Part shown: positions 1 through 1,372 of the stretch, piece after piece
Layout of the letters: each line of letters starts with the position of its first letter
How positions within the stretch are numbered: the stretch's first letter is position 1
Origin: a virus
Length of the DNA stretch: 12,821 nucleotides
UHGV virus genome: UHGV-0294068
Strand: one strand, 5' to 3'
Notes under the pieces: model-generated
What the model was told of the DNA's origin: nothing
What the model saw: only the letters and a program-made list of their open reading frames with translations
Database searches by the model: none
Position numbers and translations under genes: made by a program

Positions 1-313
1 CCACAACCTTACAATCCTCGCAAGTGGACATGCCCCAGTTGATCAGCATTGAGATGAATGCGGATTTACCAATACCGTGACCAGAAGCGCGTGCCAGCAT
101 AAGCGGCTGATAGCGCGTCTCTGGATTCTGCAGGTGATCACGTATCTCTCGGAACGCATCAGCCTGCCACTGACGTGGGCCGGTGGCATGTGCCAGTTCA
201 GTCCCCTCTTCCCCCCACGGGAACGCATAGAGAGCATAGCCAAGCGGATCGTGAGTGAACCCTGCAATATCCTCGATCAACTGCTCTTCAGGAGATAACG
301 CTGTATCTGTCAC
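1..313 (-). CDS. Phage terminase large subunit, N-terminal part (gene continues past the window start)
   Basis: Minus-strand frame open from GTG at 313-311 (overlapping the terS stop as GTGA) to the window edge. My translation reads VTDTALSPEEQLIEDIAGFTHDPLGYALYAFPWGEEGTELAHATGPRQWQADAFREIRDHLQNPETRYQPLMLARASGHGIGKSAFISMLINWGMSTCEDCKVV, with a P-loop-like GHGIGKS. Absent from the ORF track because it has no in-window stop; track ORFs 43..267(-) and 77..298(+) are out-of-frame shadows. Confidence 0.85.
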   Translation of the reverse strand, partial: MTDTALSPEEQLIEDIAGFTHDPLGYALYAFPWGEEGTELAHATGPRQWQADAFREIRDHLQNPETRYQPLMLARASGHGIGKSAFISMLINWGMSTCEDCKVV

Positions 314-906
314 TGATTACCATCCTGACGTTCTTTGAGTCGCTTCCTGGCTGCCGCTATGCGATCAGCAATTGTCACATTCACATTAACATCCAGGCGT
401 TCTTTGAACGCGTTGACATCAACATGCTTACCAATCAGCTCAAGGTTCTTCACCTTGTCAGGCCATTTAATTTTTTTGAGGATTGTCTCTATCGAATCCT
501 CGTTCATGTTCATGATGGTCGATGACAGATCAAAGCCACTAAGCGTAGTGCGCCAGATTTTCGGCCACTCACGGATTGGTTTAAGGCTCCCATCGTCGTT
601 GAGGATGTCGATCACGTCCATCTGGTCGATCTCCACCAGGCGCATGAGAACGTAATCAGCACTGACGCGCATTCGTTTGTTGCGCTCCTCCATCAACTCG
701 GCAATCCGTTTTTGAATGCGTTCATCGCGCATCATGACACTGGCTTTAACTGCCGCTGTATTTGGGGAGAATCCTGCGTTAATCGCTGCCTGAGTTTGGT
801 TTTCAGGCGTTTTGATGTATGACTGGCAATAAGCCTCCTGCATTGTTGTTAGTGGCTTAAATTGCGTTGATTTGCGTTTATAGGTTTTAGGTTCAGCAGG
901 CATCAT
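310..906 (-). CDS. Phage terminase small subunit
   Basis: ORF 310..984(-) has the look of a small terminase subunit (KPLTTMQEAYCQSYIKTPENQTQAAINAGFSPNTAAVKASVMMRDERIQKRI). Start placed at tandem ATG 906/903 preceded by GGTGG; the track start at 984 is a TTG lying inside a hairpin. Stop overlaps terL start. Confidence 0.8.
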   Translation of the reverse strand: MMPAEPKTYKRKSTQFKPLTTMQEAYCQSYIKTPENQTQAAINAGFSPNTAAVKASVMMRDERIQKRIAELMEERNKRMRVSADYVLMRLVEIDQMDVIDILNDDGSLKPIREWPKIWRTTLSGFDLSSTIMNMNEDSIETILKKIKWPDKVKNLELIGKHVDVNAFKERLDVNVNVTIADRIAAARKRLKERQDGNQ

Positions 907-948
907 AACCACCGTGGTAATAGTTACCGTTGTGGTAATAGTACCATG

Positions 949-975
949 CAAAATAAAGCCGCCATAGTTGGCGGC
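949..975 (-). terminator. Candidate intrinsic terminator about 45 nt upstream of terS
   Basis: Plus-strand GCCGCCA-tagt-TGGCGGC (958-975) preceded by AAAATAAA; on the minus-strand transcript this is a 7-bp GC stem followed by UUUAUUUUG. Confidence 0.45.
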
Positions 976-1024
976 AGTATTCAAAATCCATCAAATTCAT
1001 CATGCATAATCTACTCGTGACATG

Positions 1025-1372
1025 TCACACTATTAATTTCGTTTCATGCCAGCCTTTAGTCACCCAGCATTGTGAGTCACCATTACACGGGCATGAATTA
1101 ACGGGAACTCTCTCGCCGCACTTACCGCAAAGTTTTCTGCTGATCGATTTTATACGCCCGCGCACACGTGCATCATCCTGGCGGATCAGCAGCGCGATGT
1201 ACTCGGCCATTTCATAGGGATCGCGACCAGGGCGCCGGGCGGCGCAGTTCCGCGCCAGCATTTCCTGCTCCTGCTTATCCAGCACCAGTTCAATTTTGCG
1301 CTCACCGGCGGCGGACTGCCGAGCGCGCTGCGCGGCTTTGCGTTCTGCGGGGGATTTAGCCACGAATCGCAC
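1025..1372 (-). CDS. Hypothetical protein, basic N-terminus and C-terminal Cys-rich zinc-ribbon-like motif (CGKCG...CPCNG)
   Basis: ORF 115 aa with GTG start at 1372; sits immediately upstream of the terS control region. Start and function uncertain. Confidence 0.4.
   Translation of the reverse strand: MRFVAKSPAERKAAQRARQSAAGERKIELVLDKQEQEMLARNCAARRPGRDPYEMAEYIALLIRQDDARVRGRIKSISRKLCGKCGERVPVNSCPCNGDSQCWVTKGWHETKLIV

Follow-up and report, generated by a model that had tools for sequence, protein, structure and literature searches.

The window (the whole analysed stretch of 12,821 nt from UHGV virus genome UHGV-0294068) corresponds to the early region of an E. coli prophage of the epsilon15/phiV10-like kind (Uetakevirus), with 93–99% DNA identity to EC.W1-9, TL-2011b, and phiV10. 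Prophages of the epsilon15/phiV10 type are frequent in E. coli, Salmonella, and Klebsiella. At the junction of the early-right operon with the terminase genes, the following features were found:

1025–1363 (112 aa) or 1025–1372 (115 aa), minus strand: gene for a predicted ribbon-helix-helix (RHH) plus zinc-ribbon protein, the last of the early-right operon
1017–1028, dyad: perfect 12-bp palindrome GTGACATGTCAC, overlapping the TGA stop (1027–1025) of that gene; presumed cognate site of the protein
981–1007, minus strand: remnant ORF of 8 codons (MHDEFDGF, then stop), a deletion scar of a 62-aa ORF; holds the −10-like CATGAT
950–975, minus strand: predicted intrinsic terminator, hairpin GCCGCCAACTATGGCGGC (975–958) followed by TTTATTTT (957–950)
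938–946, minus strand: extended −10-like motif TGGTACTAT (TGnTAYTAT) directly after the terminator; candidate late promoter
911–945, minus strand: terS leader with repeats GGTACTATTACC (945–934) and GGTAACTATTACC (928–916), conserved in all variants
310–903, minus strand: terS, 197 aa, Terminase_2 (Pfam PF03592, E = 1.5e-29; PHROG 51), opening the late operon
about 312 to the window edge: terL, after terS

Results

The open reading frame, the palindrome at its stop, the terminator, and terS, as set out in a preliminary description of this DNA, are all real and all lie on the minus strand; terS is 99% identical to that of TL-2011b and phiV10 relatives. The same description had noted neither a lysis cassette nor Q between the replication genes and terS, and indeed no ORF tested in this interval matched a holin, endolysin, spanin, or Q family in Pfam or PHROG. 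However, the absence of lysis genes is not the anomaly it was taken for. In the Uetakevirus layout the early-right operon leads directly into terS, and in relatives the lysis cassette is distal in the late region, by int/att: TL-2011b and phiV10 keep holin, endolysin, and Rz at its far end, adjoining the integrase (39734–41140 and 25203–26609, respectively), and a guaA-integrated prophage has the same gene order. Because this group keeps the cassette at the distal end of the late operon, its absence from the window is ordinary; the window stops short of the distal end of its own prophage, the lysis position being read from these relatives.

Two starts are available for the last early gene: the GTG at 1363 (112 aa), which is used in most database homologues and by PGAP, and the GTG at 1372, which gives 115 aa. 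The GTG start of the gene overlaps the stop of an upstream 40-aa ORF. The protein models as an N-terminal basic, arginine-rich helix and an RHH domain, with a strand-helix-helix core forming a dimer, followed by a C-terminal zinc ribbon with conserved cysteines. Its cysteines are C82, C85, C94, C96, and C102 (115-aa numbering), and among 55 homologues (24–76% identity) three cysteine columns are invariant and a fourth cysteine is always present at a position that shifts, which bears out the Cys4-type motif first noticed in this ORF. The protein belongs to PHROG 536, which is labelled “transcriptional regulator”; we found no characterised member of this family, nor published binding, transcript, or genetic data for any of its members. 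Pfam returned no family for the 115-aa protein at E ≤0.1, and searches of BFVD and Foldseek-PDB gave nothing informative.

Membership in the Q family of antiterminators, a candidate identity in the preliminary description, did not survive comparison by profile and structure. No Pfam Q family was matched by this protein or by any other ORF of the window, phmmer and profile searches against PDB sequences returned no Q, and fold searches were negative, with none of the solved Q structures among the fold matches listed. The protein also departs from familiar RHH regulators (Arc, Mnt, MetJ, CopG, and TA antitoxins), as it carries a fused C-terminal cysteine zinc ribbon, has no Pfam membership, and is associated with sites that are intragenic or at 3′ ends, not in promoters. 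The ribbon resembles the DksA/TraR-type C4 proteins (TraR, YbiI, and lambda Orf73) in its long helix, CxxCG-xx-(L/I)P zinc knuckle, and short C-terminal helix, and the top three PDB profile matches were YbiI and TraR, albeit at a borderline hmmsearch E of 0.023–0.04; hhalign against TraR gave 42% probability. DksA/TraR was not among the best 25 of 41 Pfam families for the 55 members and was not seen by Foldseek. Instead of the CxxC-x17-CxxC zinc finger of DksA/TraR, the family has CxxC-x16-C, with the fourth cysteine in the intervening loop and no second CxxC; relative to DksA/TraR that cysteine is missing or displaced, the acidic helix tip is lacking, and the long helix is RHH helix B. A zinc-ribbon signal of this kind would suggest contact with RNA polymerase, but it is only borderline. 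Mu Com and P2 Ogr are likewise small phage zinc-binding regulators, yet the protein has no Pfam match to either; Ogr coexists with a homologue in a Yersinia P2-like phage, while Com differs in lacking an RHH domain and in having RNA as its target.

As first described, the stop codon of the gene (TGA, 1027–1025) lies inside a perfect 12-bp palindrome (1017–1028). The significance of this element lies in its specific sequence, its conservation, and its recurrence in relatives, not in 12-bp symmetry: the window holds one perfect 12-bp palindrome versus 3.7 ± 1.9 in dinucleotide shuffles of it, and exact GTGACNNGTCAC is expected by chance 0.009 times per window. The consensus GTGAC-NN-GTCAC is found at or within a few bases of the 3′ end of the gene in homologues down to ∼35% identity, and members of the family almost always have the same palindrome at their own stop codon. 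It overlaps the stop or lies at most 2 nt away in ZF40 (homologue 68% identical), phiKO2 (39%), two further N15-like phages, Vibrio phage PE002B, a Yersinia P2-like phage (44%), and IMG/VR contigs L087–L089, and exact GTGACNNGTCAC is present at the 3′ end of the gene in ZF40, phiKO2, the two N15-like phages, the Yersinia P2-like phage, Vibrio phages, and Mu-like contigs. About 19 of 20 further contigs (L090–L109, of which at least L105–L109 look Mu-like) have the palindrome inside an extended 3′ end of the gene, where it is translated as VTGH. In Uetakevirus-type loci the palindrome is invariant and both flanks are divergent, and in every lineage the spacer of the site is 2 bp (a 12-bp site). 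The chance of the site falling within ±60 nt of the gene end is ∼1e-4 per lineage. The lineages compared show that gene and site are linked and pass on as one cassette, in which the site occupies the stop codon of the gene. The half-sites are similar to the TGTGA/TCACA of a CRP site, but on reading the sequence their spacing is 4 bp rather than 6.

The site recurs elsewhere in the same genomes. TL-2011b has two exact copies, phiV10 has two plus a one-mismatch copy (GTGACATGTTAC) at the end of the gene, and K253 and ZF40 have three each, against ∼0.04 exact copies expected by chance per genome; the guaA-integrated prophage has two and its sequenced host flank none. These copies are located within transcription units, not at promoters. 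Some lie 10–19 nt before start codons (terS and gene 0032 in K253, gp46 in phiKO2, gp24 in TL-2011b), and others are inside early genes (ZF40 and L144), which makes a classical upstream activator site unlikely. A general pac or cos role was also rejected, as the sites are not near terminase genes in P2-like, N15-like, and Mu-like phages. In phiV10, hairpins directly abut the sites both behind gp21 and beside the gp03/terL terminator. Of the TGTGACATGTCACG sites in IMG/VR loci, 23 of 82 lie within 30 nt of a terminator-like hairpin (versus 3.3% of random positions); several different hairpin sequences are involved, but the counts are phylogenetically non-independent, and in the IMG/VR scan, which used a 14-mer, random matches in unrelated viruses dilute the signal. 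These genomes show both that the site recurs and that it is associated with terminators. The palindrome precedes the terminator in 15 of the 23 cases and lies downstream of the T-run in eight, which include a site after terL, read in the late direction. No terminator is adjacent to the extra ZF40 sites; these sites and the eight downstream palindromes count against a function in transcriptional read-through.

The hairpin ahead of terS has the predicted form of an intrinsic terminator, with a 7-bp stem (6 GC pairs) and a 4-nt loop; its folding energy is −13.8 kcal/mol (z = −4.0), and none of 200 shuffles was as good. Its T-run ends 46 nt before the ATG at 903, in agreement with the distance of about 45 nt originally given. 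Relatives in E. coli, Salmonella, and Klebsiella retain the terminator irrespective of the sequence inserted upstream, a single A-U pair having become G-U; the variant that carries a umuD moron lacks it. Downstream of it, TGGTACTAT is kept in 19 of 19 distinct leader variants, those without the terminator included; this motif comes from reading of the sequence, the −35-dependent promoter scan not having reported it. The terS leader repeats contain an inverted repeat, TTACC-N5-GGTAA, and a long hairpin pairing with the Shine-Dalgarno GGTGG is predicted. The RNA fold of 1045–895 has −42.9 kcal/mol (z = −3.6), and Rfam gave only a sub-threshold rseX match (E = 0.24).

The preliminary description had tentatively read this junction as a compact late switch in the manner of lambda Q, in which a late promoter in 976–1024 would yield a short terminated RNA and the 115-aa protein would modify polymerase for read-through. 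There is a likeness to lambdoid Q systems (lambda Q, Q82, and Q21, with qut): a small protein at the end of the early-right operon, a cis site immediately downstream, and a terminator before the late genes. With its −35-like left half, GTGACA, the palindrome formed part of a match reported by a promoter scan, GTGACA-18-CATGAT (1028–999). Moreover, in K253-type Vibrio phages the homologue is in the Q position and is followed by a promoter-like site, a leader with almost no variation, and a strong terminator, after which comes the holin gene. However, comparison of 37 distinct intergenic variants (including 121-nt and 307-nt forms) led us to reject the promoter as a conserved element: the 42-nt segment that would hold it is a deletion scar, the −10 CATGAT is formed by the deletion junction and is missing from the other variants, and the 307-nt variant reads CCAAAA at this point, within the ORF. 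The 62-aa ORF is intact in ∼40% of relatives, and others carry morons with LexA boxes and LexA-controlled promoters in its place. The match itself is one of seven found in the scan when 16.8 were expected, and because matches are not above chance it carries no weight. In addition, the protein has no similarity to Q families in sequence or fold, its site is a perfect dyad at a stop codon that recurs far from promoters, and homologues coexist with Q-like proteins. A switch of the lambda Q kind is very unlikely. What stands of the earlier proposal is a conserved regulator-like gene, a site at its stop codon, and a real terminator at the junction of the early-right operon with terS, with no Q; the form of a promoter followed by a proximal terminator does not, and a switch acting at the terminator is plausible.

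Discussion

We favour the interpretation, to which we assign a probability of roughly 40%, that a DNA-binding regulator and its cognate site act at the early/late boundary on RNA polymerase in the course of transcription, with read-through as the probable outcome. The protein would be a dimeric, sequence-specific nucleic-acid-binding regulator with GTGAC-NN-GTCAC as its cognate site, and the cassette of gene and site would form the final element of the early-right operon in epsilon15/phiV10-type prophages. Once accumulated, the protein would bind the palindrome, most likely as double-stranded DNA, and the bound protein would act on RNA polymerase passing through the site, so that transcription carries on past the terminator (975–950) into terS and also past further palindrome-flanked terminators interrupting the late region. 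This would constitute a site-dependent, antitermination-like switch in the position of Q; it would work without the promoter proposed in 976–1024, and its protein is no homologue of Q. That the protein binds the site, that its target is DNA rather than RNA, and that its effect is positive (read-through) is in each case what we infer. Support comes from the linkage of gene and site, the recurrence of the site inside transcription units and beside terminators, the weak RNA hairpin, the lack of a Q in the window, and the Q-like location of the homologue in K253-type phages; the coexistence of homologues with Q-like, Ogr, and Mor/C-like regulators weighs against it.

We know of no RHH protein that is an antiterminator, and most characterised RHH proteins are repressors. 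The same elements may also be explained by a conventional RHH repressor that serves as a roadblock or insulator, stopping polymerase at the boundaries of units, reinforcing terminators, and shutting early operons late in infection, while late genes are transcribed from a promoter of their own, such as TGGTACTAT (946–938). Sites that abut terminators on either side fit this explanation, as does the conserved extended −10-like motif downstream of the terminator, which, if it is an independent late promoter, would make read-through unnecessary; the sites of ZF40 and L144, inside the gene in cII position and an early-left gene, are those expected of negative feedback on early transcription. However, one of the K253 sites comes after the lysis genes and 19 nt ahead of terS, and a roadblock there would cut off terS and all structural genes, which is why we favour a positive role. 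The phiV10 site after gp21 stands between the structural genes and the tail-fibre and lysis genes, and a gene cannot be autoregulated from a site at its own 3′ end. We consider a roadblock unlikely.

Action on RNA, which we regard as distinctly unlikely, would have the protein bind the hairpin of the transcribed palindrome in its own and other mRNAs and control translation of the next cistron, 3′-end stability, or the folding of terminators, on the model of Mu Com or N-boxB. The Com target falls within the 3′ portion of com itself, ahead of the gene under Com control. The palindrome is always co-transcribed with its gene, with a start codon 1–19 nt downstream of the site in many lineages. The arginine-rich N-terminal helix, the greater frequency of the palindrome-then-terminator order (15 versus 8), and the phiV10 mismatch, which is compatible with a G-U pair, are consistent with such a function. 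On the other hand, the hairpin has 4–5 bp and a loop of 2–4 nt, and its folding energy of −2.9 kcal/mol (z = −0.1) is no better than that of shuffles. RHH is a fold that binds double-stranded DNA, the invariant C5 and G8 are those expected of a symmetric DNA half-site, and in the eight cases with the site downstream of the T-run it is outside the terminated RNA.

The half-sites GTGAC and GTCAC are shared with matS, the 13-bp GTGAC-N3-GTCAC (PMC6538776). With two or three sites per genome, two of which flank terS–terL in Uetakeviruses, the protein could be a DNA organiser like MatP of the E. coli Ter macrodomain, bridging or marking a few matS-like sites for replication, condensation, packaging, or interference with host SMC, and having no direct role in transcription. 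The site is not a true matS, as its spacer is 2 bp rather than 3, and the phage-encoded protein, with one to three sites per genome, gave no significant hhalign match to the MatP profile and lacks the four-helix bundle and coiled coil that accompany the RHH domain in MatP. This reading also leaves the stop-codon position and the sites before start codons without explanation, and we judge it very unlikely.

Homologues with the site at the gene end are found in podo-, N15-like, P2-like, Mu-like, and lambdoid phages. Some coexist with Q-like proteins (phiKO2 and ZF40), a Mor/C-like activator (Mu-like), or Ogr, which means that, as a rule, late switching does not depend on this family alone. It is conceivable, though doubtful, that this RHH–zinc-ribbon family is an unrecognised class of site-loaded elongation or antitermination factor, unrelated to Q, N, and RfaH, that recognises a 12-bp DNA dyad, found both where its own gene ends and beside terminators, and times the early-to-late transition in Uetakevirus, N15-like, P2-like, Mu-like, and lambdoid phages.

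We found no published account of how late genes are switched on in epsilon15/phiV10-type phages, and no paper with the palindrome sequence or on late regulation in the Uetakevirus genus; the ZX5 paper is limited to repressor, antirepressor, and integrase. The present analysis provides a concrete candidate protein and an exact, mutable cis site for such a switch. At minimum, it supports the annotation of PHROG 536 as “transcriptional regulator”, otherwise unexplained, and sets right the idea that lysis genes are unusually absent here. That the site is found at the stop codon is a rule common to phage types with almost nothing else in common, which points to a portable regulatory cassette. If the protein does act on elongating RNA polymerase by means of an RHH domain, it would be a new kind of factor among the few antitermination mechanisms.

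Results

The genes relevant to the finding all lie on the minus strand of the window, in the following order.

cro-like gene, then a tR1-like terminator, then replication genes with DnaT-like and lambda-P domains
nin-type accessory block: DUF1064, HNH, Ead/Ea22, methyltransferase and DUF551
40-aa membrane ORF, the regulator ORF, terS and the start of terL

Positions 300-2100 are 93-99% identical to Escherichia phages EC.W1-9, TL-2011b, phiV10 and related records of the Uetakeviruses (epsilon15/phiV10-like phages), whose genome layout the window shares, and an E. coli chromosome carries a nearly identical prophage adjoining guaA. As the preliminary description had it, neither a lysis cassette nor Q lies between the replication genes and terS, with zero ORF matches to holin, endolysin, spanin or Q families. 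The absence of lysis genes, which it had taken for an anomaly, is ordinary: TL-2011b and phiV10 keep holin, endolysin and Rz (39734-41140 and 25203-26609, respectively) past the tail-fibre and O-antigen-modification genes, adjoining the integrase. Such a distal cassette is what epsilon15-like podoviruses normally have and is already known biology, so the lysis genes of the integrated prophage would lie at the opposite end from the window. Strong terminator-like hairpins directly follow the cro-like gene (7421-7440, minus; the tR1-like position) and follow the repressor gene (8452-8471, plus), so early antitermination is probably needed by these phages too; no N-like factor is annotated in them.

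The segment around the regulator gene contains the following features, every element of the preliminary description among them.

1372..1025, minus: regulator ORF, 115 aa
1028..1017: palindrome GTGACATGTCAC, perfect over 12 bp, holding the ORF's TGA stop (1027..1025)
1007..981, minus: eight-codon remnant MHDEFDGF*
975..958, minus: terminator hairpin GCCGCCAACTATGGCGGC, followed by TTTATTTT (957..950)
946..938, minus: TGnTAYTAT, extended -10-like
911-945, minus: terS leader with inverted repeat TTACC-N5-GGTAA

Databases and PGAP favour a GTG at 1363 as the ORF start, giving 112 aa. The protein matches PHROG 536 ("transcriptional regulator") at E = 1e-53, and neither Pfam nor NCBIfam has a matching model; its close homologues number 728, with 147 cluster representatives at 50% identity. 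Fifty-five aligned members (24-76% identity) share an N-terminal helix rich in arginine, in which R8 and R13 are invariant; an alternating hydrophobic segment and two helices come next, and the Cys motif noticed earlier recurs as C79-x2-C82-x16-C99 with a fourth Cys within the intervening loop. AlphaFold predicts, with high confidence (pLDDT 89.6), helices at 5-18, 30-42, 52-74 and 100-108, the last following a zinc knuckle. Among the memberships tested, only the ribbon-helix-helix (RHH) fold class and the Uetakevirus layout were established; those for Q, DksA/TraR, MatP, Ogr and Com failed or gave equivocal results. A profile search of PDB sequences placed YbiI and TraR (DksA/TraR zinc fingers) on top at E = 0.02-0.04, hhalign against TraR gave 42% probability, and Foldseek did not confirm the resemblance, which we treat as a lead only.

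About 3.7 perfect 12-bp palindromes are expected in a sequence of the window's size and one was seen, so the palindrome as such is unremarkable; as an RNA hairpin it is marginal (-2.9 kcal/mol) and no better than shuffles. Its linkage to the gene was followed in 80 related IMG/VR loci plus TL-2011b. Across the 37 distinct intergenic sequences of the terS-adjacent loci the palindrome is invariant and both its flanks, the gene's last codons and the sequence beyond, vary; Salmonella and Klebsiella relatives conserve it equally. The same placement, with a central dinucleotide that differs by lineage (AT, TG, CG, AC, GG or CC), recurs in other phages.

Position of the GTGAC-NN-GTCAC dyad relative to the homologue's stop codon
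2 nt past the stop: ZF40; contig L088
Overlapping the stop: phiKO2; N15-like phages YDC107_1 and MStein-2023a; a Yersinia P2-like phage; Vibrio phage PE002B; contigs L087 and L089
Within a short C-terminal extension, read as VTGH: about 19 of the 20 contigs L090-L109 (L105-L109 look Mu-like)

The exceptions are contig L110 and the K253-type Vibrio phages, whose site lies about 230 nt downstream. Exact copies number two in TL-2011b, three each in K253 and ZF40, and two in phiV10, which has a one-mismatch copy at the gene's end, against about 0.04 per genome expected by chance; the guaA prophage has two and its sequenced host flank zero. From this co-inheritance we conclude that the palindrome is the putative cognate site of the protein.

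The extra copies lie outside promoter regions. One phiV10 copy abuts the terminator after gp21, the last structural gene, and another abuts a bidirectional terminator that separates terL from a reverse-strand moron. In the IMG/VR scan, 23 of 82 TGTGACATGTCACG sites, cases that are not phylogenetically independent, were at most 30 nt from a terminator-like hairpin, a proximity seen for 3.3% of random positions. These hairpins include several unrelated sequences; the palindrome comes before the hairpin in 15 cases and after the T-run in 8. Two K253 sites each lie 19 nt before a start codon (terS and another gene). ZF40 and a low-GC lambdoid contig both have a site inside the cII-position gene, and a further ZF40 site is within an early-left gene; no terminator was found near ZF40's two extra sites.

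Several further copies were noted. The palindromes at 7622 in ZF40 (gp12) and 1498 in contig L144, two lambdoid phages otherwise distant, occupy a homologous position near the 3' end of the cII-position gene and encode (C/R)DMS(Q/H). A one-mismatch copy, GTGACATGGCAC, conserved in a small ORF after the portal gene (TL-2011b 16873, phiV10 29482, contig L111 5306), could be either a weak site or an accident of the coding sequence. The bases left of a third TL-2011b copy (32250-32293; AAACGAAACTATC) resemble the regulator gene's last codons in Klebsiella relatives (GAAACGAAACTACCGCTG), which suggests recombination or duplication of the gene end.

The hairpin described before terS makes a credible intrinsic terminator, at -13.8 kcal/mol and z = -4.0, that ends 46 nt before the terS ATG (903). 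The 42 nt separating it from the palindrome are the remnant of a 62-aa ORF, intact in a 307-nt intergenic variant (about 40% of relatives), and at this spot Klebsiella relatives have small morons under LexA-box promoters instead. This gap (981-1007, minus) is an insertion hot spot for small inserts, holding a deletion remnant, the 62-aa ORF, or a LexA-box-controlled 85-aa or UmuD-like ORF (window, L009, L012 and others; L064, L068, L081, L113, L114). TGnTAYTAT and the inverted repeat, downstream of the terminator, are both kept in every Uetakevirus-type variant and persist even where the terminator is missing, and the leader is predicted to form a long hairpin over the terS Shine-Dalgarno sequence. 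The TGnTAYTAT region could be an independent late promoter, and the conserved leader either a late promoter with operator or an element controlling translation. In the PGAP annotation and the phiV10 record, terS starts at an upstream TTG (224 aa; window 310-984, minus; phiV10 24216-24890), which would fall within the terminator region; the start at 903 (197 aa), as for TL-2011b, better fits the conserved leader.

Discussion

Homologues share a genome with a Q-like protein in phiKO2 and ZF40, with Ogr in the Yersinia P2-like phage and with a Mor/C-like activator in Mu-like phages, so the family is not a universal late activator; in all these phages the gene lies toward the end of an early operon. 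Among Uetakeviruses and K253-type phages its position is that of Q, and a search for Q in the window and in the three K253 ORFs immediately preceding the homologue gave no match. Because the sites lie within transcription units, often beside terminators, they suggest action on elongating polymerase: the protein, at its predicted site, would act there, and its effect would be positive, promoting read-through, a role to which we give a probability of roughly 0.4. That the protein instead forms a roadblock or insulator seems unlikely: if it did nothing but block polymerase, K253 would lose expression of terS and its structural genes, and phiV10 that of its tail-fibre and lysis genes. The positive role is favoured on this ground. 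Regulation at the RNA level is more doubtful again, given the marginal stability of the palindrome's hairpin.

The compact late switch first proposed stands in part. A conserved gene-palindrome cassette and a terminator before terS are present; the Q family and the lysis anomaly have to be given up, as does the late promoter between palindrome and terminator, where the segment is a deletion remnant with other content in relatives. With the -10 of the predicted promoter (GTGACA-18-CATGAT) arising at the deletion junction, the promoter-proximal model is improbable. K253 has the order gene, palindrome, promoter-like site, nearly invariant leader and strong terminator just before the holin gene. 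Its homologue-holin gap (33227-33514; also in PhiPS02) contains TTGAAA-17-TATGTT as the promoter-like site, some 100 nt of leader that two phages differing elsewhere have kept almost unchanged, and a terminator with a 12-bp stem that ends at the holin ATG, a layout similar to lambda pR'-tR'. AlpA-type proteins can be antiterminators in other systems, so an AlpA-family ORF in the early-left region (10988-11236, plus; PF05930, E = 3e-5) and the ORF at 11346-11645 (plus), assigned by position only to the relatives' PerC-family transcriptional regulator, are alternative candidates for late control.

By function the closest analogue of the cassette is Q-qut, and by structure the protein is closest to RHH regulators. 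The target of the RHH protein MatP, matS, has identical half-sites but a 3-bp rather than a 2-bp spacer (PMC6538776), and a MatP-like organiser is the least probable of the readings considered. As far as we found, the literature describes neither the gene-palindrome cassette nor its link to terminators, and both are directly testable.
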